A stretch of DNA of 64,000 nt from a virus (lineage: Duplodnaviria; Caudoviricetes), in the IMG/VR virus record IMGVR_UViG_3300033074_000977, positions 1-64,000 of that record; one strand, written 5' to 3'. The notes beneath the pieces were generated by a model. That model searched no databases and was not told the DNA's origin. It saw only the letters and a program-made list of their open reading frames with translations. Below are positions 1-64,000 of this stretch, one piece after another. Each line of letters opens with the position of its first letter. Position 1 is the first letter of the stretch. Made by a program: the position numbers and the translations under genes.

Positions 1-383
1 ATTTGTACTATTGTTATAACAATATACCTAATCCATCGTAAGTGCCCTAGTGGTTATTAAGATACTACTTCATACTTGCACTTACACTAGCAGGCGCGCA
101 GCAACACCGATCTCAGGTGTAATGCGTCCGTGCCTCAGTGAGATCGCCCAGGTAGCGCCCGCGGCCAATGTAGAGTTGATTGTGAAACTAAGCACAAGCT
201 AGGTATACTAGCAACCCCAGGTCGGATAGGCCAGCACAGGTATATTGTAGTATATGCTATTATAATCTAGTATACATAGCTAAGTTGTTGATTCTAAAGG
301 TAGTTACAGTATACTATAGTTTAATCCCCACTTCCTTCAGAGGGTTCTAGCGCGATTTTATTTCACTATACTAGACTTTTTGA

Positions 384-412
384 TTGACAGCTTGCCCGCT
401 AATCCCTATAGT
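384..412 (+). promoter_or_regulatory. sigma70-type promoter P1
   Basis: TTGACA (384-389), 17-nt spacer, TATAGT (407-412); -35 overlaps palindromic operator-like site 385-401. Confidence 0.8.
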
Positions 413-513
413 GTGCCCAGTTCGCAGCGAGAAACAACGCAGTAAGCCGAACTACAGCGAAGCCGATACTTCGCAGGGTTGCTTGAGAGTCAACAATAAT
501 TCTCACTTCCCTA

Positions 514-542
514 TTGACGGACAGACCGTCATTTGCTAAGAT
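514..542 (+). promoter_or_regulatory. sigma70-type promoter P2
   Basis: TTGACG (514-519), 17-nt spacer, TAAGAT (537-542); contains palindrome TGACGG-N5-CCGTCA (515-531). Confidence 0.7.
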
Positions 543-547
543 GGCTT

Positions 548-1187
548 CGCGATTGGGACACAACCCAAGCGAGCAAGTTTACAATTCGCGCATAGGTTGC
601 AGTAGGCACGGGCGGCAGTAATGCTGTACTCCTATGAATGAAGTTGCGCGACTGTAGCTGGTTTGAGTTGGTTCCACTGTTCAGATAGTTAGTAAGCACG
701 CGCCGAATAGCACAACCCGACTGAGCATGAGCATACGCTAAAGTATGCCGCTCTATAGTCACACTGATGCTGGCGTAGGCTAAACCAGTAGTATGCGGCA
801 ACCGAAAGTTGCCAGTCAGTTAGCTAGTTCATTGACAATTTAATAACCGATCAATGGCCTACAACCGATGTTTGCTGTAACCCGCAAGCGCATAGGGCAT
901 TTTGCCTGCTAAAGCGGGGCTTGATCGGGCAATGCGATAACACGCAGGGGATTTAGACTAACCCTATTGTGTGCTGGTAGGAGTGACAGCCTACGGTGCA
1001 AGCGCGCGTGCTAACCCGAATGGGTTGGATGAGTATATGGGTGGGACGGGAGTGGATTGTTGCGATGCACAATCAATCGGTTATTACATAGGCTATGTAC
1101 ATAGAACCTATGGCTGGCTAGGGAGTGGAACAGCGCAAGGCTTGGTAACAAGTAACCGCGAAGAACCTAGTTAATTGATTGTGCATC
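548..1187 (+). ncRNA. candidate large structured ncRNA (~640 nt; ROOL/GOLLD-like size class, family unconfirmed)
   Basis: No convincing ORF. More than 12 helices read by eye, e.g. 586-592/645-651, 731-736/743-748, 797-802/808-813, 892-897/962-967, 1011-1017/1022-1028 and a perfect 14-bp 1064-1077/1174-1187; GNRA loops; starts at the expected +1 of P2. Confidence 0.6.
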
Positions 1188-1225
1188 GGAGCAATTACGC
1201 TTCCATAACAAAGGATGAACAGATT

Positions 1226-1417
1226 ATGAAACTTACAAAGGCCGAAGTACTAAATTTTGAGGCTTCAGCATATAACGACACTTTGACACTGCAAGATGCT
1301 ATTCGAAAAGCTTATGGTTGTGGTATTTCGCCAGAGACGGCTTTAAGAATAATAGCAGATTGGAAAGCTTTGCGCAGGGACGTTAGCGGAATTACGCAGG
1401 CAGCACCTATGTCGTAG
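1226..1417 (+). CDS. hypothetical protein (63 aa)
   Basis: ATG 1226 downstream of AAAGGA SD; same frame as ORF 1175..1417. Confidence 0.6.
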   Translation: MKLTKAEVLNFEASAYNDTLTLQDAIRKAYGCGISPETALRIIADWKALRRDVSGITQAAPMS

Positions 1418-1458
1418 GTGTTGCTTGGGCAATTTCGCCCTAAACAAAGGATGAAACA

Positions 1459-2382
1459 ATGGCACAAACACAAGTAGATAACATGCGTTCGCGCTTGCTT
1501 AATAGCAATGCGCCCGATCCACGCGGCAGGGTAGCAGCTACGGCTACACTCACCGCGAACCAATTGAATAAATCTGGTGGCAGACTCAAACGCCCACCAT
1601 CCGCTGCAACCGTAGCCCAGCAAGCTAACGGCACGGATATTAAGTTTGACGATGGCACGTTCTATGCTGAAACGTTGCTTGATGATAACAATGGTTTCGT
1701 GGCTAACAAAGCTAAGACACAGCATACCTACCACGCGGTCAAGAAGTTTGAACTAGGCGACGAAGCCGCACCAACCCGCGCGGATGGCAGTCAATTGATT
1801 CAGTCGAAGCATACATTAGTGTTCGCTACTCCTGAATACCTTGCAGCCAAATCAAAGGACGCTGAATTGAAGCGGTGGCGCAATTTAGCTACAGCCATCG
1901 GCAAAGGCTTGGCTGACAGCAGCAACAAAGGTGTGACCATTGACGATGTGTCGAATTGGATACTTGGTCAACGCACTGACCGTCGCTGGCTGTTCAAACG
2001 CTACGATGGCAATGGGGTTGTATTCTGCAAGGCTGACGATAAAGGCGCGGTTGAATGGGATGATGTGCCGGATGCACAGCAGAAAACCATTCACAAGCAT
2101 CTGGCCGCAGCGAAGAAACGTCAAGGCGTGGACGGTGAGACAGATACCAGCACCGATATTAACGCTAAAATCGCGCGGCTGACGGTGCTGCTTGAACAGT
2201 ATTCCCCTGAGAAAATGGCGGAAATTGTGGAACGGCACGGTGCAGATAGTATGGTGGTGGACGCTTTGAATAAGGCTAAGGCTGCTTATGAGAAGGAACT
2301 GAAGCAAGCCGTGAAGACCCGTGACAACCAAGTGGCGAAAGCGTTGGCGAAAGGTGCGGCGGGGAAAGGGGCGGGGAAGTAA
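1459..2382 (+). CDS. hypothetical protein (307 aa)
   Basis: Long ORF, AAAGGA SD, no motif recognised. Confidence 0.8.
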   Translation: MAQTQVDNMRSRLLNSNAPDPRGRVAATATLTANQLNKSGGRLKRPPSAATVAQQANGTDIKFDDGTFYAETLLDDNNGFVANKAKTQHTYHAVKKFELGDEAAPTRADGSQLIQSKHTLVFATPEYLAAKSKDAELKRWRNLATAIGKGLADSSNKGVTIDDVSNWILGQRTDRRWLFKRYDGNGVVFCKADDKGAVEWDDVPDAQQKTIHKHLAAAKKRQGVDGETDTSTDINAKIARLTVLLEQYSPEKMAEIVERHGADSMVVDALNKAKAAYEKELKQAVKTRDNQVAKALAKGAAGKGAGK

Positions 2383-2388
2383 CCAGCG

Positions 2389-2526
2389 ATGGCGTACCAA
2401 AAACCCTACCGTTATAAACCATGCCGTAGGCTAACTACGGCTGAACATTTGATAAGGCTGGCTCTAGGGCTGGCCTTTATTTTTGGCGCAGCTTGGCTGA
2501 TTGCTAATGTTGTGCCGATGAATTGA
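2389..2526 (+). CDS. small membrane peptide (45 aa)
   Basis: Hand-translated; hydrophobic stretch LIRLALGLAFIFGAAWLIANVV. Confidence 0.45.
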   Translation: MAYQKPYRYKPCRRLTTAEHLIRLALGLAFIFGAAWLIANVVPMN

Positions 2527-2538
2527 GGAGAAATACGG

Positions 2539-2835
2539 ATGCCGTTATATCTTGAGCTATTTCACGGGCGTGACTATCCAGACGAGCAATTAGATGACTG
2601 GGGTAAGCAGGGACCAGTCTTAGGACCATTTGACTATGTGCATATTACGTACCTTACACACATACAAGCACGGTATAGCAATTCGGATAAGGTATTGGAT
2701 ATGGACGAAATTCGCATTGTTAATGACCTGATTCTGTACGCAGGTGTTTATTACGGTGACTGTACAATTCATTCAGAAGAGACTGTAAAAAGCTCCGAAG
2801 TTTTACAGAAGCTGTTGGTTGAAGTCCAACCGTAG
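2539..2835 (+). CDS. hypothetical protein
   Basis: ORF with GAGGAG SD. Confidence 0.75.
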   Translation: MPLYLELFHGRDYPDEQLDDWGKQGPVLGPFDYVHITYLTHIQARYSNSDKVLDMDEIRIVNDLILYAGVYYGDCTIHSEETVKSSEVLQKLLVEVQP

Positions 2836-2916
2836 CTTGCCGCTCGCAGCTAGTATGGGGTAGGGATAGCGTGATTCTATGCCTATGCTGTGGTAGCTGC
2901 TTGCGGGCGGTTATTT
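2833..2916 (+). promoter_or_regulatory. intergenic RNA hairpin, TAGCTTGC...GGTTATTT family
   Basis: CCGCTCGC pairs with GCGGGCGG; long imperfect stem with G-U pairs; ends 5 nt before ATG 2922. Confidence 0.55.
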
Positions 2917-2921
2917 AGATT

Positions 2922-3125
2922 ATGATTACAAAAACTGATTACACTAACCGTATCTTGAAATTGTGCAGCGATAGCGATGCAGCTAAAGCTGAGATACTAA
3001 AAGCATACACAAGGCTGTACCATGAGCATCCAAAGCAGCCAAATGAATCCGACGAGGAGTTTATTACGCGCTGTGCGAAGCTCGACCACGCAGATGGGGA
3101 GGATAATTTGATGTTCGCAGTTTAG
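2922..3125 (+). CDS. hypothetical protein
   Basis: ORF in the early + strand run. Confidence 0.65.
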   Translation: MITKTDYTNRILKLCSDSDAAKAEILKAYTRLYHEHPKQPNESDEEFITRCAKLDHADGEDNLMFAV

Positions 3126-3139
3126 GGGGTTTAAGCTTT

Positions 3140-3391
3140 ATGAACAAACCAACCAACCCAACCAACCCGACAGTCATAATCCACATTGGCGGTGGCTGTC
3201 TACGTCAGGTAATTAGCAACATCGCCAATTTAGAGTATGTGCTAATTGACGAAGATAACCATAGTGAATCCTGCGACGAGGGGGAGTGTTATTGTGATCT
3301 TGGGGCAGAGCGTCAGGATTCAATGGAGTATTGGGAAACTACTGAGGCTGCGGTGGAACGCGGTCGTATGATCTTGCAAGGAGCTGACTGA
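3140..3391 (+). CDS. hypothetical protein
   Basis: ORF in the early + strand run. Confidence 0.7.
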   Translation: MNKPTNPTNPTVIIHIGGGCLRQVISNIANLEYVLIDEDNHSESCDEGECYCDLGAERQDSMEYWETTEAAVERGRMILQGAD

Positions 3392-3413
3392 TTTCTTGGG
3401 GGAGGATTAGTTG

Positions 3414-3462
3414 GAGTAACTTGCGGCCAGCCCATCAAAAGTGGGTTGGTCGGAGGTTATTT
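3414..3462 (+). promoter_or_regulatory. RNA hairpin sequestering SD (GGAGG) of next gene
   Basis: GAGTAACTTGCGGCCAGCCCAT-CAAAA-GTGGGTTGGTCGGAGGTTATTT; pairs nearly end to end with G-U wobbles. Confidence 0.65.
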
Positions 3463-3466
3463 AGAT

Positions 3467-3742
3467 ATGACTGAACAATTAAACGCTAATGATCTTGAAT
3501 ATGCTCGCAGCGTAGTCAAGGGCTACTTCAAAGAGGTGGCTGATTCACGCAGCAAGCGTGCAGCGGTTAATTTGTACGACATAGCCAACCAAGCTGCTTG
3601 GCGAGATATGCACGAAGCTGGTGTTATCAAGGATTTAGGTACTGGTAATTTTGAGTATCTAGGTGATGTGTTTAGATTGATGCCTGGGAATGGTGATTGT
3701 GAGGAATGGTTGGTTTGGGTTGGCAGATCGGAGGTTATTTAG
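3467..3742 (+). CDS. hypothetical protein
   Basis: ATG 3467 after GGAGG SD; in frame with ORF 3446..3742. Confidence 0.7.
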   Translation: MTEQLNANDLEYARSVVKGYFKEVADSRSKRAAVNLYDIANQAAWRDMHEAGVIKDLGTGNFEYLGDVFRLMPGNGDCEEWLVWVGRSEVI

Positions 3743-3744
3743 TT

Positions 3745-3942
3745 ATGGCAATGACTCATACATCTAAGCTACGAAGATACCGTGTATGGACGCGGAATTT
3801 CAGTGTGCGACAGCCGTATAGCTGTATGACTGATTGGCAAACACGCAGAGCTTGTGAGAAGTACTGCATCGGACGCTGGGGCCACATTCCAGGGTTTGTG
3901 ATTATCAGTGCTGCTCAAAGTCCTAAGCGATTCTTACAGTAA
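3745..3942 (+). CDS. hypothetical protein
   Basis: ATG 3745 after GGAGG SD; in frame with ORF 3706..3942. Confidence 0.6.
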   Translation: MAMTHTSKLRRYRVWTRNFSVRQPYSCMTDWQTRRACEKYCIGRWGHIPGFVIISAAQSPKRFLQ

Positions 3943-3959
3943 GAAGGGTTGGTGATCGA

Positions 3960-4121
3960 ATGACAATCCGCCAACTAATCGCAAACAATTATGCCTACCA
4001 AGATACCTACGCAGATCGCACAACCGCGTTATGTTACCGCGACGAATGGCGACGTAAGGGCTACGCCGCAGAGGTAGTGTACATGCCGTTGCGGGGGAAT
4101 TATCAATTATGGGTGAGGTAG
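3960..4121 (+). CDS. small hypothetical protein (53 aa)
   Basis: Hand-translated open frame filling the gap, AAGGG SD-like upstream. Confidence 0.45.
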   Translation: MTIRQLIANNYAYQDTYADRTTALCYRDEWRRKGYAAEVVYMPLRGNYQLWVR

Positions 4122-4645: not shown

Positions 4646-4739
4646 GTGCGCGTGACGAAATTGGTAATAGTGGGCGGGCCTAACAAACTCGCCTGAGTTT
4701 TTAATTAAGCTCTTGCAGGTTCGAGTCCTGCCGCGCACA
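4646..4739 (+). tRNA. atypical class II tRNA-like element (Leu-type body, extended anticodon arm, loop CU-AAC-AA)
   Basis: Acceptor GTGCGCG/CGCGCAC plus A discriminator; D-loop AATTGGTAA; T-arm GCAGG-TTCGAGT-CCTGC; long variable arm GAGTTT/AAGCTC; 21-nt anticodon arm instead of 17; no encoded CCA. Confidence 0.7.
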
Positions 4740-10596: not shown

Positions 10597-11034
10597 ATGG
10601 ACTACAAAGATGCTTTAATTGCAGCCGGTGCCGAAGTACTGGCTTACGAAACTTTCGGCAGCTACCAGGGTGACTGGTGGGCGAAGGTTAACTACGAAGG
10701 CAAACAGTTCTGGGTTAGGGGATCATATGGTTCATGCTCAGGGTGTGATGCATTGCAACATGACTTTGGTTGGAGGCTATCAGCTGGCTGTGAAGATCAT
10801 GAATACACCTACGATGACAAAACCATTGCGGCGTGTTCAGCTTGTCAGGCAGTGTTAGCGGACAACGAGGGCAAGTTTGCAGCCTTTGGCAAGGGTTACT
10901 TAACCGACGAAATCTATGACCAAGCAGGCGCGGAGGCGAAGGCTGCTGAGAACCTGGATTGGGATCAAGATGCCCGCCAGATGTGGGACTTTTTGCGTAC
11001 AAATTCCATTGACAGCCTGCCCGTCATCAAGTAA
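10597..11034 (+). CDS. hypothetical protein
   Basis: SYQGDW and YGSCSGCD motifs seen in small phage proteins. Confidence 0.75.
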   Translation: MDYKDALIAAGAEVLAYETFGSYQGDWWAKVNYEGKQFWVRGSYGSCSGCDALQHDFGWRLSAGCEDHEYTYDDKTIAACSACQAVLADNEGKFAAFGKGYLTDEIYDQAGAEAKAAENLDWDQDARQMWDFLRTNSIDSLPVIK

Positions 11035-11037
11035 ACT
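11009..11037 (+). promoter_or_regulatory. sigma70-type promoter upstream of parB-like gene
   Basis: TTGACA, 17 nt, TAAACT; operator TGACAG-N5-CCGTCA at 11010-11026, inside the 3' end of the upstream CDS. Confidence 0.7.
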
Positions 11038-12663: not shown

Positions 12664-12793
12664 AGGGCAATGGCGGAACTGGTAGACGCGCAGGATAATA
12701 CAGGAAAGCGGGAAGCTGTCTAGTTAGTTAATAGCTAACTAGGCGGGCCAGATAAAACTCTTCCCATTGTGGGTTCAAATCCCACTTGCCCTG
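12664..12793 (+). tRNA. tRNA-like element (130 nt) with no canonical anticodon arm and a large internal insert
   Basis: Acceptor AGGGCAA/TTGCCCT; Leu-type D-arm TGGCGGAACTGGTAGACGC; T-arm GTGGG-TTCAAAT-CCCAC; between them 78 nt with GGGAAG/CTTCCC and CTAGTTAG/CTAACTAG helices. Confidence 0.7.
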
Positions 12794-15737: not shown

Positions 15738-15766
15738 TTGACAGCCTGTCCGTCAACTGATATACT
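15738..15766 (+). promoter_or_regulatory. sigma70-type promoter for the recombination/replication operon
   Basis: TTGACA, 17 nt, TATACT; operator TGACAG-N5-CCGTCA at 15739-15755. Confidence 0.8.
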
Positions 15767-21502: not shown

Positions 21503-24052
21503 ATGGAAACCCAAGAAATCATCGACCATTTCGAGCGGCTCCGCTGCACTGCCAAGTACCCTGTCTTCTACTTAACTGGGCAGGCAGGCACCGGCAAAAC
21601 GTACACCATCAAACAAGCTATCGAGCAACAACCGAACTTCGCGCAGCTCGCAGCATCCACCGGTATCGCAGGCGTGAACCTGGGCACCACCACCATCAAC
21701 CAAGTGCTGAAATATTTCAACACTGACTCGCTGCTGGACTCCTACCAATCCGGGCAGCTGACTATGAACTTACGTAAAGTGCGCAAGTTCAACCGCTTTC
21801 TGGTGATCGACGAAGCATCAATGATCCCCTATCAACAGCTGGATATATTCCTCTGGGCGTTGGATGAGATCAATGCTGATGTGGAGGATGACGCGCGGTT
21901 AGGTTTAATCCTCATCGGAGATTTTTGCTTGGGTTACGGCACTAAAGTGATGATGGCCGATGGTAGCCTAAAAGTTGTTGAAGACATTAAAGCAGGCGAT
22001 CAAGTAATGGGACCGGATAGCAAGCCCCGCAATGTGCTCAGAACTACGACAGGATTGGATACTTTGTATCAAGTTAACCAGACTAACGGTGATTCTTATG
22101 TAGTTAATTCTAAACACCCAATTGTACTGCGGCGTAGTAAGGATGGTAAAGCTTCGTGCGATGGGCGTTGGCCCAGATACCCTGACTACGCTGATAACTT
22201 AACGTTAACTGCGCCGGAACTGCTGTTAAAATCCGATAAATTTCGTTCGTGTTTCTTTGGGTATAAAGCAGGCGTGGTTAAGTTTCCTGTGCGACAGGCA
22301 CCTACTTTAGATCCGTATTTTGTAGGCTTATGGCTAGGCGATGGCGACAAAGATGCGCCTCGAATAACTACGGCTGACCCGGAAATTGTAGATTACTTGG
22401 AATCCTTGTCGAATGTGTACGGATTGAATCTCACAATTAGTGGGTGGGATAGAACATCCGCAGTACGGATAGGAATTACACATGGGAAATCCAAGGGTAA
22501 TATTCCCAACCCTATACGAACCAAACTAAGCGCGTTAAGCTTGTTCAATAGCAAGCACATACCTGATGATTATTTGTATGCCATAGAAGCTGCTAGGTTG
22601 GATCTACTTGCAGGACTTATAGATTCTGACGGAAGCTTTACAGGTAATCGTTACACCATTGCTTGTGGGATAGAAAAGTTGGCTCACCAAATAAAACAAC
22701 TAGCTGATCAATTAGGTTTCAGGTCTACTATTCAACCAGTAAAAAGCGGGCCATACGCCAACAATCCAAATAAGTCTATGTGGAGGATTTCAATTGGGGG
22801 TGACACTTGGAGAATCCCCTGTAAGGTTGCCAGAAAAGTATCCAACCCTAGATCACTTGGACGCACGCGCATAGAGTCTAAGGTTTCAATTGAACGGTTA
22901 GGGCGCGGTTTGTATGCAGGATTTGAAACCGATGGTGATCATTTGTTTCTGCTGGCAGACGGTACTGTTACCCATAACTGCCAGCTCCCCCCAGTCCCGG
23001 GCAATCTCATCGTCGCGGGCAAACCAGTCCTAACCAAAGATGGTCAGCGCAACGTCAAGGAACCTACCCCCTGGGCGTTTAAGTCTGAGTTGTGGAGTAG
23101 GTTCGAGGAAGAAGGCCATATTATTAAGCTGGAAAAGATCTACCGACAATCCGATCCGACCTTCCTCAATGGTATTAACGCCATCCGCAAGGGACTGGGT
23201 AAATCAGGAGTGAGTTACCTCGCCGCCGCTGGGGTTGAGTTCACGCGCGAGCTGGATAACTACTTCGACGGCACCACCATCGTAGGCAAGAACGAGGAAG
23301 TAGATCGGATTAACAAGATCCGGTTGAACCAGCTGGAAGGTAAGACCCAGCAGCTACCTAGTACACGCTGGTGGGCAGGGGAAGTGTTGGGCTGGAAACA
23401 ACCCAGCGAATGGCAGTACATCCCCGAGCAGTTGGAGTTAAAGCTGGGTGCGTATGTGATGATATTGAGTAACTTGAAGGATCCGCTGACAGGGCGGATG
23501 GAAGCTGCGAATGGAGATTGTGGGTGGGTCAGGGAGATCACTCAGCTGCGTGTGCCTGTGTATGGTGCGCCAGATCCTGAGTCTGATGATCCCACAGCAC
23601 CTCCTACGATTATCTCAGAGGAGATCCAGTGGGTGGTGCGCGTAGAGTTAGTCCGCCGCCCTGATGAACTCGTCACCATCCCAGTAGTCAAACGCAACAT
23701 CGAATCTCGGCATGACGTTGACGACGTACTTAAAACACATCCTAAATTCAACCGCGACGAAGCTGGCAACCCTAAGAAGATCCGTAATTCAATGGGTCGG
23801 TCGGTCTGGTGTTTAGGCACGATTGAATACTTCCCATTGCGGTTGGCTTACGCTACTACTACACACAAGTCGCAAGGGTTGTCATTGGACAGGATCCAGA
23901 TTGATCCGCGCGGGCACTTTATGGGACAACCGGCTATGGCGTATGTAGCGTTGAGTCGCGGGCGCACGCCGGAAGGGATTAAGATCGTGGGGAATAGTAG
24001 TTTATTTGCGGAGCGGGTGCGGCTTGATGAGGCTGTGCGGCGCTTCGTTTAG
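21503..24052 (+). CDS. Pif1/RecD-like SF1B helicase interrupted by an intein
   Basis: TGQAGTGKT, ASTGIAG, IDEASM, GDF^CQLPPV, AYATTTHKSQG, YVALSRGR. Confidence 0.9.
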   Translation: METQEIIDHFERLRCTAKYPVFYLTGQAGTGKTYTIKQAIEQQPNFAQLAASTGIAGVNLGTTTINQVLKYFNTDSLLDSYQSGQLTMNLRKVRKFNRFLVIDEASMIPYQQLDIFLWALDEINADVEDDARLGLILIGDFCLGYGTKVMMADGSLKVVEDIKAGDQVMGPDSKPRNVLRTTTGLDTLYQVNQTNGDSYVVNSKHPIVLRRSKDGKASCDGRWPRYPDYADNLTLTAPELLLKSDKFRSCFFGYKAGVVKFPVRQAPTLDPYFVGLWLGDGDKDAPRITTADPEIVDYLESLSNVYGLNLTISGWDRTSAVRIGITHGKSKGNIPNPIRTKLSALSLFNSKHIPDDYLYAIEAARLDLLAGLIDSDGSFTGNRYTIACGIEKLAHQIKQLADQLGFRSTIQPVKSGPYANNPNKSMWRISIGGDTWRIPCKVARKVSNPRSLGRTRIESKVSIERLGRGLYAGFETDGDHLFLLADGTVTHNCQLPPVPGNLIVAGKPVLTKDGQRNVKEPTPWAFKSELWSRFEEEGHIIKLEKIYRQSDPTFLNGINAIRKGLGKSGVSYLAAAGVEFTRELDNYFDGTTIVGKNEEVDRINKIRLNQLEGKTQQLPSTRWWAGEVLGWKQPSEWQYIPEQLELKLGAYVMILSNLKDPLTGRMEAANGDCGWVREITQLRVPVYGAPDPESDDPTAPPTIISEEIQWVVRVELVRRPDELVTIPVVKRNIESRHDVDDVLKTHPKFNRDEAGNPKKIRNSMGRSVWCLGTIEYFPLRLAYATTTHKSQGLSLDRIQIDPRGHFMGQPAMAYVALSRGRTPEGIKIVGNSSLFAERVRLDEAVRRFV
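21926..22978 (+). mobile_element. intein with LAGLIDADG homing endonuclease (351 aa)
   Basis: Starts CLGYGTKVMMADG, ends VTHN before Cys+1; motifs VGLWLGDG and LAGLIDSDG; inserted in helicase motif III. Confidence 0.92.
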
Positions 24053-25477: not shown

Positions 25478-25710
25478 GTAACATCTACAGCACTAATGAG
25501 CGTAACCCAGAGGCCGACAACACTGAGGCATCTCAACTACTCAAGATCATCTACGATGAGTCTGAATGCGAGTTAGGTTATGACAGTGAGCTACTAACTA
25601 ACTGGGAGCGTGAGTTCCTGGAGTCGGTAGACAGCAACCTAGCTCGGGGTTGGAACGTAACCCAGAAACAACTTTTCAAACTCCGTGACATAAAGGATAA
25701 ACTTCTATGA
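25474..25710 (+). CDS. hypothetical protein
   Basis: LTNWEREFLES...TQKQ motif; ATGA overlaps at both ends. Confidence 0.7.
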   Translation: MSNIYSTNERNPEADNTEASQLLKIIYDESECELGYDSELLTNWEREFLESVDSNLARGWNVTQKQLFKLRDIKDKLL

Positions 25711-28478
25711 CACCAAAACCTCACACTTGCTCGTCGTGCCTTTTAGCTGACACCCCCGGCTGCACCGGCTTCATGCCAGCCCCCGAGGGTAAAGGTTTAA
25801 TCCCGCTTCTCGTAACGGCAGAGGCTTTAGGCGAGAATGAGGCACGCGATTCAAAACCGCTACGTCCCTATGCGGAATCTGGATCTCTATTTGAACGTGC
25901 GTTACGTTCAGTAGGAATCCAGCGCGAGCAAATAATCGTAACCAACATCATAAAATGTCGGCCTCCGGCTAACCGGCTCGCTGGCGAATACTACGAGCAG
26001 CCAGCTATTGAACACTGCCGACAATACTTCGACGCCGAAGTATCCCAATACAAACCCAAAGCTATCCTGGCAATGGGTGCGATACCATTCAAGTATCTAA
26101 CCGGGATGTCAGGTCACAAGCAAAACCTCGAATACGTGCGTGGCTACCCGGTAGAATCTATCTGGTATCCAGGGATCCCCGTGATCGGCACGTTCCATCC
26201 GTCGTATATCCGACGTGGCGCATCTGAGATGTTTCCGGTGTTGGTTCACGATCTGCATAAAGCGTTACAGATTGCCAAAGGAAAATTACCCTGGACAACT
26301 GCGCCTGAACAGGTAACTTACCAGCTAGGCGGAGTAGCTGAATTAAAGCAGATGTTGGATATACTTAGATCCCAACCTGACAGACTGCTGGCCTACGACA
26401 TCGAAACCCGTGAGTCAGCTAAAACCAACGAAGACGAATACGATTCGTTGTCGCCTAACGCTGAGATCGAATTAGTCCAATTATCCATCGCCCCAACCAC
26501 CGGGCTGGCTGTGTATTGGAACAGCGATACTATCCCCTTACTTAAAGAGATCTTCGCTACCGCTAACCCCAAATCAGCCTTCAATGGATGGTTATTTGAT
26601 AATAGAGTCCTTGAGGCTAAAGGTTTAACCCTCAACGGAGAACTCCGTGACGCAATGGCAGCATGGCATCATTTGCAACCAGACTTACCAGCTAACTTAC
26701 AATTCGTCTCATCGTTCTACGGTATGCCTCGTCCTTGGAAACACGAGATGGGTGCGGATTTAGTCACCTATGGGATCCGTGACGTGGATGCGGTGCAACG
26801 TATTGAGTCTAAGATTAACTCTGACCTAGCCCAAATGAAGATCCATGACGGCTATAAAAACTACGTAGTCGGTTTACGTCCTATCTTGAAAGCTATGGAG
26901 GAGCGTGGAATTGGCCGGGATCAACAAGCGATTGACGAATTAAAACTATGGATCGAACAGGAGAAGGTGAGGTTGAACGCTGAGATCCAGCAGTTAGCTC
27001 CAGCTGAGATTAAACCTGTTCAGAGATGGACTAGCTGGCCGCTAGACCTATCCGAAGCTCGCAAGACTTGGGCAGAAGCCAACCCCTACATCCCGATCTC
27101 CGTGAAAACTGGTAAGCCTTTGAAGGCTAGGATACCGGTGGTCAAGATCGAAGATCTGCGGTTGGCTGTAACCCAAGCAATGCATCCCGTAGGTGTGGGC
27201 GCACACGATATGTTAGCCACAGTTGAGAGATTAGGATATAAGTTCCATCCAACTAAACAAGAACTATGTAAAGAGCTACCGTTCCTTCCAGGATCCACGC
27301 AGCATCTAATGGCTTACCTACGTCACCAAGGTGTCGCAGTGCCTAAAGATCTGGACGGTAAAGATACCACCGGTCGTAGCGAGTTAGATAAATTAGTTAA
27401 AAAACTCAACCGCTCAACCAAACCCAACGAACAGGAAGCGGCCACGTTTATCAACAAGGTACTGGAATATCGCAAGCTGCATAAAGTTCTAGCTACCTAT
27501 ATCGAAGGCTGGAAGAACGGCCCGGACGGTCGGATCCATACTACGTTTACGTTCTTACCGGCTACAGGTCAGCTCTCCTCCCGCAACCCTAATGTTCAGA
27601 ACGTAGGCAAAGGTTCCGAATTAGCAAAGCGTTTTCGCAGAACTATCACACCAGCCCCGGGGCACGTGCTAGTCGAAGCTGATTACAAATCGTTCCACGC
27701 TTTGACATTAGGCTTCGAGGCGCAAGATCCAGACTATATGCGGTTAGCCCGACTGGATTGTCATAGTTTCGTGGCAGCGCATCTATTGAAACTACCCGAA
27801 GCTACATCGGGTAAACTGATTGAAATGTCCGACGCTGAAATGTTGGACTTCTTCAAATGGTTCAAATCAGATCCTGAACGCAAGCTGATCCGTGACAAAA
27901 AGGCGAAGCCTAGCATTCTCGGTATAGGTTTCGGCTTAGGCAAACACAAACTCTACACAATGAACGAAGATTCGTTCGCCAACGAAGCCGAAGCTGGCAA
28001 GGTCATCACGTTAATCCGTGGAATCTTTCCTAAAGTGTTTGAGTTCCAGGAAAACGTTAAACAACTAGCTTATCGTCAAGGTTGGTTACGGTCACGCTGG
28101 GGTTTTGTGCGTAGGTTTTCAGATGTGTATCGGTACAACTCCAGATCTCAAGGGTTGACTGCGGGAATGGATGCTGAAGCTTGTATCGCATTCCTACCAG
28201 CTAATTCAGCGTTCGGCAAAGTGCGTGAGGCAATGTTGGACTTCGAGCGCGAGGGGTTGAACGTTAGGTATAACTGCGTGTCCAGCGTTCACGATTCGAT
28301 TATATTTGACGTACCTGGAACGTTGATCGACGAAGCGTTGCCTAAGATCAAGGAGATAATGGAGCGGCCTGGAAGTATGTTGGTGGATCCGGTTGTGGCA
28401 CCGAATGGTTTACATTGTGAGGTTGAGTTGTCTATTTCGGACAGATCCTGGGCTGATCTACAGGAGGTGAAAGTATGA
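25707..28478 (+). CDS. polA: family A DNA polymerase with N-terminal UDG-family-4-like and 3'-5' exonuclease domains; divergent active site
   Basis: UDG-like: CxxC, AEALGENE, NIIKCRPP.NR, HPS. Exo: YDIET, N...FD, YGIRD. Pol: TGQLSS.NPNVQN, ADYKSFH, AK...LGIGFG, VHDS. Confidence 0.88.
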   Translation: MTPKPHTCSSCLLADTPGCTGFMPAPEGKGLIPLLVTAEALGENEARDSKPLRPYAESGSLFERALRSVGIQREQIIVTNIIKCRPPANRLAGEYYEQPAIEHCRQYFDAEVSQYKPKAILAMGAIPFKYLTGMSGHKQNLEYVRGYPVESIWYPGIPVIGTFHPSYIRRGASEMFPVLVHDLHKALQIAKGKLPWTTAPEQVTYQLGGVAELKQMLDILRSQPDRLLAYDIETRESAKTNEDEYDSLSPNAEIELVQLSIAPTTGLAVYWNSDTIPLLKEIFATANPKSAFNGWLFDNRVLEAKGLTLNGELRDAMAAWHHLQPDLPANLQFVSSFYGMPRPWKHEMGADLVTYGIRDVDAVQRIESKINSDLAQMKIHDGYKNYVVGLRPILKAMEERGIGRDQQAIDELKLWIEQEKVRLNAEIQQLAPAEIKPVQRWTSWPLDLSEARKTWAEANPYIPISVKTGKPLKARIPVVKIEDLRLAVTQAMHPVGVGAHDMLATVERLGYKFHPTKQELCKELPFLPGSTQHLMAYLRHQGVAVPKDLDGKDTTGRSELDKLVKKLNRSTKPNEQEAATFINKVLEYRKLHKVLATYIEGWKNGPDGRIHTTFTFLPATGQLSSRNPNVQNVGKGSELAKRFRRTITPAPGHVLVEADYKSFHALTLGFEAQDPDYMRLARLDCHSFVAAHLLKLPEATSGKLIEMSDAEMLDFFKWFKSDPERKLIRDKKAKPSILGIGFGLGKHKLYTMNEDSFANEAEAGKVITLIRGIFPKVFEFQENVKQLAYRQGWLRSRWGFVRRFSDVYRYNSRSQGLTAGMDAEACIAFLPANSAFGKVREAMLDFEREGLNVRYNCVSSVHDSIIFDVPGTLIDEALPKIKEIMERPGSMLVDPVVAPNGLHCEVELSISDRSWADLQEVKV

Positions 28479-63101: not shown

Positions 63102-64000
63102 TTAACTTCCTGATTCTGAAATTACCTGTCGGGTGGTACCGTCAGGATTGACTTTGTTGATCAGCTGCGGTGGTTCCGCACCAGAACTCGGTCGGCCCGG
63201 GCCTCTGCCACTTCCTGCTGCCATACCCAGCGCTGCTCCGCCACCTTCACCTCCACCCTGTTCCCCAGCCAGCTGCTGCGCTGCCATCATCAGCTGTTGT
63301 TCAGGCGTAATCGCACCTTCCCCCTGCAATTGCTGTGCAGCAATCCCTTGTGCTGCCTCACCTTGGACCATCGCCACCATTTGCGCGACGATCTGCTTCT
63401 GCATCGCTTGGATTTGCAGGTCAGTTGTGAACTGTGCAGTCATCCGCTGCTCCTCAACCCAACGTTCGATAATGGTATTACCTGGGAGTGTGCCGTAACC
63501 TTCAATGCCCATCACCTCAGCCAAAGTCTGGGAATCCATTTTGAAGTTCGGTTCGCGGAACAGCTGTAGCATTACCATCTTCCGCTTCCAGTCGGTTAGG
63601 TTGAAGATAGATTGCGGGGTAATGAAGAATCCTATCCGGCGCGCGATGTAACGTAAACGCCGGAAGAAGCTGCTGTTGTCGAGATCCGACGCACCCGGTA
63701 TCTCGGCTGGTACGATATTCCCTGGTTGCCAGTCAACTTCACTGTCGAGCATCCCGGTTGGGCCGTTAACACGTAAGCGGCGCGCGGTAGTATCGAACTG
63801 CATCCAAAGCCAGCTGCATTGGTAGCCAAGCTGGGTCATGGATTTCTCCAAGGAGGCGGCGTAATCACTCATCAACGGACCCATCGCCTGCATGAGTTTC
63901 TCGATACCGTCTGCGTCGGGGATCTGGTTGAGCTTGGCAAGGCTGGAGAAATCCTCCGCACCGATGTTGTGATTCATGAAGGTACGGATGTATTCAGCTA
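63102..64000 (-). CDS. portal protein, C-terminal part (truncated by the window edge)
   Basis: Frame stays open to 64000 (AEYIRTF before MNHN); Gln-rich crown and Gly-rich tail; upstream of scaffold and MCP. Confidence 0.7.
   Translation of the reverse strand, partial: AEYIRTFMNHNIGAEDFSSLAKLNQIPDADGIEKLMQAMGPLMSDYAASLEKSMTQLGYQCSWLWMQFDTTARRLRVNGPTGMLDSEVDWQPGNIVPAEIPGASDLDNSSFFRRLRYIARRIGFFITPQSIFNLTDWKRKMVMLQLFREPNFKMDSQTLAEVMGIEGYGTLPGNTIIERWVEEQRMTAQFTTDLQIQAMQKQIVAQMVAMVQGEAAQGIAAQQLQGEGAITPEQQLMMAAQQLAGEQGGGEGGGAALGMAAGSGRGPGRPSSGAEPPQLINKVNPDGTTRQVISESGS

Follow-up and report, generated by a model that had tools for sequence, protein, structure and literature searches.

A conserved four-domain structured RNA between the early promoters and the first early genes of an uncultivated phage

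Comparative sequence analysis confirms that positions 549-1205 of the phage DNA described here encode, on the plus strand, a real, conserved, structured RNA of ~650 nt that folds as four domains. The whole stretch analyzed, 64,000 nt and called the window below, runs from base 1 to base 64000 of an IMG/VR phage record that is 73.7 kb long and rated complete. Early and middle genes occupy the plus strand up to ~29.5 kb and late genes lie on the minus strand; the leader region sits between these divergent arms. The explanation that we favor, with moderate confidence, is that the RNA is a new kind of elaborate 5′ leader, of a family absent from Rfam, that is transcribed from the tandem promoters P1 and P2 and probably processed at its last domain. 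A first-pass annotation, made without database searches, had proposed a large, ornate, multi-helix RNA on this strand starting at 548 behind an early promoter, and covariation among relatives now supports such an RNA, starting at ~549. The features of the region are as follows.

384-412, + strand: promoter P1, TTGACA, 17 nt, TATAGT (11 of 12 consensus positions matched)
514-542, + strand: promoter P2, TTGACG, 17 nt, TAAGAT, with the palindrome TGACGG..CCGTCA; predicted start at ~549
549-665, + strand: domain 1 (D1), hairpin 553-557/564-568, then a long irregular stem
570-574/661-665, 579-583/653-657, 586-592/645-651, 602-606/631-636, and 610-612/628-630, + strand: helices of the D1 stem
614-617/622-625, + strand: GNRA hairpin capping D1, with a 4-bp stem
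666-694, + strand: variable D1-D2 linker, an insertion hot spot
695-781, + strand: domain 2 (D2), nested helices 700-704/772-776, 709-712/768-771, 719-722/757-760, and 723-726/750-753, with hairpin 731-736/743-748
797-813, + strand: hairpin with a CGAAA loop and a covarying stem (GGCAAC/GUUGCC versus UUCAGC/GCUGAA; an 8-bp variant in L003)
826-846, + strand: A/U-rich linker, kept in all relatives and also found after D1 in L007; contains TTGACA without a usable -10
847-1028, + strand: domain 3 (D3), version 1, multi-branch, closed by 847-853/922-928 and 929-936/1005-1011
946-949/962-965, 977-981/990-994, and 1012-1017/1022-1027, + strand: hairpins of D3 version 1
1029-1055, + strand: G-rich linker, varying in length and sequence among relatives
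1056-1195, + strand: domain 4 (D4), a long hairpin with a hypervariable upper stem (1064-1077/1174-1187)
1188-1228, + strand: hairpin-SD cassette (GGAGC, loop AAUUAC, GCUUC), then the SD AACAAAGGAUGAA and the start codon of gene 1
1226-1417, + strand: first early gene, 63 aa, optional (missing from L002, L004, L009, and L011)
1459-2382, + strand: second early gene, 307 aa, always downstream of the leader

The product of the second early gene served as the query for finding relatives; it has 15 homologues at 48 to 88% identity and three more at 27 to 32%. A long gene-free leader lies upstream in all of the contigs recovered, i.e., L002 to L009, L012, and L013, found by the 307-aa gene, and L010 and L011, which were added by a metagenome scan with an invariant leader motif, and one further contig has a 2.5-kb gap without genes at the same position. 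The same leader was recovered from at least nine related metagenomic phage contigs. These leaders are homologous yet mosaic in blastn and nhmmer comparisons, and the fold is kept in L004, whose 307-aa protein is 48% identical, and marginally in L012 (32%). Our models of D1 and D2 (R1 and R2) find a single copy of the RNA in the genome; neither these models nor blastn gave a match at 12.8-13.4 kb. A blastn search with 1-1500 found no relative among cultured phages, tblastn with the phage polymerase returned only remote matches among them, and scans of IMG/VR with two proteins and two motifs found nothing. The sequencing runs that share words with the stretch come mostly from wastewater and sludge, and our best reading is that the leader RNA family is common to a small group of related, uncultivated phages from wastewater and sludge. 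A single motif match in a Flavobacterium metagenome-assembled genome, from a scan of genome collections, was set aside as a chance match in AT-rich coding sequence; it has no R1 match.

Positions 1-1225 contain no ORF longer than 90 aa and no conserved ORF, in agreement with the first-pass view that the two ORFs called within 548-1187 look spurious. A putative leader peptide at 639-689 was dropped, as it is not kept in L003. No Pfam family was found for the 63-aa or the 307-aa protein.

The four domains emerged from section-wise alignments analyzed with RNAalifold and pair counting, with shuffled and slid alignments as controls, and the compensatory changes exceed those of both controls. In D1, 92.8% of cells are paired, and 13 pairs changed on both sides compared to 5.3 in shuffles (none of 500 reached this number) and three to five in slid controls. 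The D1 stem holds an invariant 10x10 internal loop, and its capping stem differs among the window, L009, L003, and L004, with the loop remaining GNRA throughout (GUAA, GCAA, GAAA, or GCGA). Model R1 matches L003, L004, and L011, with a marginal match to L012. The figures for D2 are similar, with 93.3% of cells paired and two-sided changes at 11 pairs, compared to 3.8 in shuffles (0 of 500) and one to seven in slid controls. The loop strands of D2 are nearly invariant and make up the most conserved sequence of the leader, and model R2 matches L002, L003, L004, and L011. Across D1 to D3 there are 89 G-U cells versus 16 A-C cells, and GNRA loops occur on the plus strand only; this excess, together with the loops, places the RNA on the plus strand.

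About eight of the 12 helices drawn in the first-pass annotation hold. Helix 553-557/564-568 is supported by the alignment of relatives; 586-592/645-651, 731-736/743-748, and 797-802/808-813 covary, as does the entire stem of the GNRA hairpin; 977-981/990-994 covaries by eye in L002 and L007; 1011-1017/1022-1028 is supported and invariant; and 1064-1077/1174-1187 has a different sequence in seven relatives and is always paired. Three others give way to better-supported partners: 631-636 pairs with 602-606 instead of 591-596, 830-835/851-856 is displaced by 847-853/922-928, which shows compensatory change, and 962-965 pairs with 946-949, with covariation, instead of the proposed 892-897/962-967. 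For the inner helices drawn within 1087-1170, the only other copy is the nearly identical one of L011. A suggested long-range pairing between 628-634 and 978-984 is not conserved. The motif GCTAAA(G), thought to recur in loops, occurs nine times compared to 8.2 expected, and only the copy at 737 is a conserved hairpin loop.

Folding energies no better than those of dinucleotide shuffles had been named in the first-pass annotation as a refuting outcome, and this check gave a divided answer. The 640-nt stretch has a minimum free energy of -221 kcal/mol (z = -2.0, 20 shuffles), with z = -4.2 for the reverse strand, and the separate domains, at 60 to 100 shuffles each, have z = -1.9 (D1), -1.95 (D2), +0.2 (D3), and -5.9 (D4), compared to -0.3 to -1.1 for coding controls. 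Single-sequence folding energy is thus equivocal for the whole and for D1 to D3, where it is weak evidence, and strong only for the last hairpin. Because thermodynamics alone is insufficient, the claim of a structured RNA rests on the comparative evidence.

The leader is modular. The D1-D2 linker carries ~90 extra nucleotides in L011 and 366 nt, including a called 80-aa ORF, in L007; the ORF in the L007 insertion (238-603) has its own SD, and the insertion follows a copy of the conserved linker motif (826-846 in the window). D3 exists in two versions. Version 2, found in L003, L005, L009, and L011, cannot be aligned to version 1 and has its own covarying fold of 60 pairs, and compensatory pairs are present within each version. 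D3 and D4 versions assort independently among relatives, L011 combining a version-2 D3 with a D4 close to that of the window. We found no conserved helix joining the 5′ and 3′ ends of the leader; one candidate falls in the variable interior of D4. Given the insertions, the shuffled D3 and D4 versions, and the missing end-joining helix, the RNA looks like separately folded beads on a string, and its modules look as if they had been exchanged by recombination at the conserved linkers. An apparent tandem duplication of D1 in L005 (926-937) proved to be an assembly artifact, in which two allelic D1 versions of mixed strains are joined across a run of Ns.

D4 is a long hairpin with 22-nt arms that are 91% complementary, and every relative has its duplex of 20 to 22 bp in an unchanged register. 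The arms are invariant over the first nine pairs, where position 7 is a conserved G-G mismatch. The next 11 to 14 pairs occur in seven completely different sequence versions that are always complementary, with U-G wobbles on the plus strand; the interior is as short as 10 nt in L004 and reaches ~96 nt, and the L011 hairpin equals that of the window except for a single base. A processing hairpin of the RNase III type is marked by a mostly unbroken duplex of roughly two turns (≥20 bp) that depends little on sequence, and D4 has such a duplex in all relatives, free in sequence and with one conserved mismatch. Because length, register, and mismatch are fixed while the sequence is free, D4 fits a candidate processing site for a double-strand-specific nuclease of this type.

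The 3′ arm of the D4 base overlaps the hairpin-SD cassette, and the D4 base helix and the small cassette hairpin are mutually exclusive. The cassette is present in every relative, with pair changes among G-U, A-U, and G-C, and it adjoins the leader whichever gene comes first, be it the 63-aa ORF, another small ORF, or the 307-aa gene. A second copy, without D4, precedes gene 2 at 1426-1461 (GGGC, loop AAUUUC, GCCC), and the cassette also precedes other early genes of the relatives. No T-run (intrinsic) terminator was seen between 549 and 1226, and the RNA has no 3′ end of its own, merging instead into the ribosome-binding cassette. The self-contained noncoding RNA gene of the first-pass annotation is therefore not supported, since its last helix overlaps the cassette with its 3′ strand. 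Being contiguous with this cassette, the structured RNA is, in physical terms, an untranslated 5′ leader to the first operon.

At the other end, P1 and P2 keep their position and both hexamers across relatives, P1 being conserved in L002, L003, L005, L009, and L011 and the P2 -10 element changing only within TAnnnT. Together with copies at 11009-11037 and 15738-15766 (plus strand), they form a four-member family with an unusually conserved GC-rich spacer and the consensus TTGAC(A/G), spacer, TAnnnT; three of the four copies carry the palindrome TTGAC-N9-GTCA, and in P1 its right half is GCTA. P1 and P2 are sigma70-like and would be used as sigma70-type promoters. The conservation of the family exceeds what sigma70 needs; a regulator of the phage or the host may use the extended sequence as an operator, or it may be the site of a specialized sigma factor. 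P1 lies 130 nt upstream of P2 and would add a 5′ extension of that length to some transcripts, so that the RNA, described earlier as the first transcript of the early arm, is not strictly the first. The TTGACA at 832 was considered as a third promoter and rejected, with no acceptable -10 at 16 to 18 nt in any version.

An element upstream of P1, at 30-78 (CCATCGTAAGTGCC ... TAAGATACYACT), is invariant even in the most distant relative, with counterparts at 262-312 in L002, 2631-2680 in L003, and 576-630 in L004. Several independent assemblies start 100 to 550 nt upstream of it, and it may mark a genome terminus, a packaging site, or another type of promoter. It is followed by a GC-rich island with possible helices at 100-170. 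Positions 1-380 are not found elsewhere in the record as a terminal repeat.

These observations suggest the following course of events. Host RNA polymerase would transcribe 549-1205 from P1 and P2, and the untranslated leader would fold into its four domains, each closed on its own, with A/U- or G-rich linkers in between. D1 to D3, the first RNA to emerge, would most likely act on their own transcript or on the transcribing polymerase, or be kept as a stable by-product. An RNase III-type cleavage in the D4 duplex would then let the 3′ arm refold into the small hairpin just 5′ of the SD, and this hairpin could give the early mRNA a defined, protected 5′ end. SD-like 4-mers (AGGA, GGAG, and GAGG) occur five times in 548-1205 compared to 11.7 expected and are depleted in the leaders of six relatives too, as a long untranslated RNA would be expected to show; the plus strand of the leader is also rich in G and poor in C. 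Both properties would make it easier for such an RNA to escape ribosomes and Rho. A role as ribosome sponge or standby site was considered and set aside as unlikely, given this depletion and the absence from the window of the SD-like AAAGGAUGAA found in the D1 loop of relatives.

The early region of phage T7 offers a parallel to such a leader in its layout. In T7 early RNA, the RNase III site R0.3 lies between promoters A1 to A3 and gene 0.3, and in both phages the early arm opens with >1 kb of noncoding DNA, has strong promoters of host type in tandem, and places a long hairpin directly upstream of the first ribosome-binding site. In contrast to T7, whose leader to our knowledge holds no conserved multi-domain fold, 500 nt of covarying structure precede the hairpin here, and blastn detects no sequence similarity. 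In lambda, nutL and an RNase III hairpin lie in the pL leader ahead of N, and the lambda pL/N and HK022 put elements, at 60 to 220 nt, are likewise structured RNAs right after early promoters, which act in cis; the RNase III-sensitive hairpin beside the SD of the first gene is also common to lambda and the leader, where D4 is only predicted to be one. Unlike in these systems, the boxA-like motif of the leader is not conserved and no partner protein is known. With four domains, 650 nt, and invariant loops, the fold is far more elaborate than any processing or stability leader that we know of, which hints at an additional, possibly trans, function. D1 to D3 appear too elaborate for a processing role alone; their target may be the nascent transcript or the polymerase, in cis, or they may persist as a stable RNA that works in trans.

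That last possibility can be carried further, to a free-standing, large, ornate noncoding RNA, cut from the early transcript at D4 or in the linkers, that targets factors of the host or the phage in trans, for instance as a decoy, scaffold, or multimeric assembly, as has been proposed for ROOL and GOLLD. We regard this as possible and hold it tentatively. The size, the several closed domains, the GNRA loop, and the invariant internal loops are typical of compact RNAs, the fold persists to L004 and marginally to L012 as described above, and this would be the first RNA made on infection. However, the RNA lacks a terminator or defined 3′ end and a conserved helix closing its 5′ to its 3′ end, and the separation of D1 from D2 by 366 nt, including a gene, in L007 speaks against one globular particle. 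The narrower proposal that D1 to D3 are a new class of large folded phage RNA, the first product of infection, released at D4 and acting untranslated, seems to us somewhat doubtful; examples of what such an RNA would be are an RNA-only decoy or scaffold against a host defense or nuclease, or a takeover factor directed at the polymerase or the ribosome.

Processive antitermination of the put or nut kind, in which D1 to D3 would bind the polymerase or Nus factors and cause read-through of downstream terminators, is unlikely in our estimation. It would suit a leader immediately behind early promoters, and no member of the promoter family occurs before 11009, yet there are terminator-like hairpins at 2454-2477 (with a T run) and 10973-10987; by eye, a CGCUCU-type motif in D2 also resembles lambda boxA. 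That motif, however, belongs to helix 723-726/750-753, which covaries, and L003 and L004 carry another sequence in its place. A nut/boxA site as such, with a single-stranded, conserved boxA beside a boxB hairpin, was rejected, the motif being paired and not conserved. Known put, nut, and EAR elements are moreover five to ten times smaller, and no N-like protein was identified. The 2454 hairpin itself lies within a conserved 45-aa membrane-protein ORF and could be a coding coincidence. The ORF (2389-2526) has a transmembrane-like segment, and the hairpin is kept in six relatives, either as such a coincidence or as a dual-use terminator.

A further explanation, which we consider very unlikely, is that the conservation reflects DNA-level signals, such as a promoter array, operators, a replication origin, or a packaging site, and that the helices are incidental. 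The location between divergent arms is where control regions sit, there are real promoters with palindromic spacers, some conserved sequences are not helical, and the element at 30-78 is strongly conserved. Nevertheless, compensatory pairs, a G-U strand asymmetry, and GNRA loops are unexpected for DNA sites, and pairing in D4 is kept where the sequence has been wholly replaced.

We searched Rfam 15 (4227 models) with the window at gathering thresholds, with 1-1500 at E ≤10 and permissive filters, and with seven relatives at E ≤1. The window gave three tRNA matches only, 1-1500 gave two sub-threshold chance matches, mir-1743 (minus strand, 1381-1446) and DUF2693-FD (508-558, over P2, 20.5 bits against a cut-off of 44.5), and the leaders of the seven relatives gave none. 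Nothing in Rfam 15 thus matched the leader as ROOL, GOLLD, OLE, HEARO, a group I or II intron, a known ribozyme, or a riboswitch, and with no match even at permissive thresholds an identity with ROOL, GOLLD, OLE, HEARO, or an intron is unsupported. In phages and prophages, ROOL often adjoins tRNA genes; the leader is phage-borne, and the nearest tRNA is at 4646. The first-pass annotation had suggested a distant kinship with ROOL or GOLLD, for which only the size, the phage origin, and a supposed likeness of short segments to ROOL speak. It can hardly be credited given these searches, which do not bear out the likeness, and given the position of the RNA behind early promoters rather than beside tRNAs.

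Of the two outcomes that annotation had offered, a distant member or a new class, the second is borne out with respect to Rfam 15, and the best reading is a new RNA family, new in the sense of being absent from that database. Large, highly structured RNAs are rare in bacteria and phages, and a function is known for only a minority of them. Any new family of large RNAs is an opportunity to find new RNA biochemistry, and the leader offers a clear, testable setting for it, with a defined promoter-proximal position and as the presumed first RNA on infection. It also shows that a long, seemingly “empty” control region where an early arm begins can harbor conserved RNA folds that routine annotation and Rfam miss.

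The leader resembles ROOL and GOLLD in being large (600 to 800 nt in these RNAs), multi-domain, phage-borne, and of unknown function (cryo-EM, bioRxiv 10.1101/2024.12.08.627333). It differs from them in having no covariance-model match, in being a 5′ leader behind early promoters, and in consisting of separable modules joined by linkers; unlike ROOL and GOLLD, it gives no sign of multimerization. Phage ICP1 makes an ~800-nt transcript without a predicted coding sequence in an ORF-less gap of ~1 kb that is not beside tRNAs, and its authors likened the length to GOLLD and ROOL (PMC7567579). That transcript, which we compared by description only, lies between gp139, which opens the lysis cluster, and gp140 and not at the start of an early arm. 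Fremin et al. reported 10,006 candidate phage RNAs in 2023 (PMC10690425), a catalogue with which the leader may overlap.

Two metatranscriptomic wastewater runs share ~30% of the words of the stretch. When four RNA-labeled wastewater runs were compared, as contigs only, to 1-4000, the stretch upstream of the promoters was also covered, and carry-over of DNA is possible. The contig breaks in these RNA runs, at 846, 1055, and 1188, coincide with strain-variable module borders.

The 307-aa protein that follows the leader is a candidate partner of the leader RNA or of the hairpin-SD cassette. Its predicted structure has a disordered basic N terminus, a five-strand sheet on a long helix, a C-terminal helical hairpin, and a Lys/Ala-rich tail. 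The sequence gave no match in the PDB and no Atlas lead, and the AlphaFold model (pLDDT 77) had no Foldseek match below E = 0.2. The list of VIA matches was filled by the C-terminal helical hairpin, and matches of the model to levivirus coat proteins, at E of ~1, were too weak to use.

Three other features of the window deserve mention. A PIF1/AAA_30-type helicase at 21503-24052 is interrupted by an intein with a Hint domain and a LAGLIDADG homing endonuclease. At 25707-28478 there is a family A DNA polymerase with an N-terminal domain of the uracil-DNA-glycosylase superfamily, and the nearest polymerases of cultured phages are ~23% identical. Right after tRNA-Trp, the 130 nt at 12664-12793 score 35.3 bits with the Rfam tRNA model and receive no ARAGORN call, consistent with a tRNA-like body that carries a large insertion.
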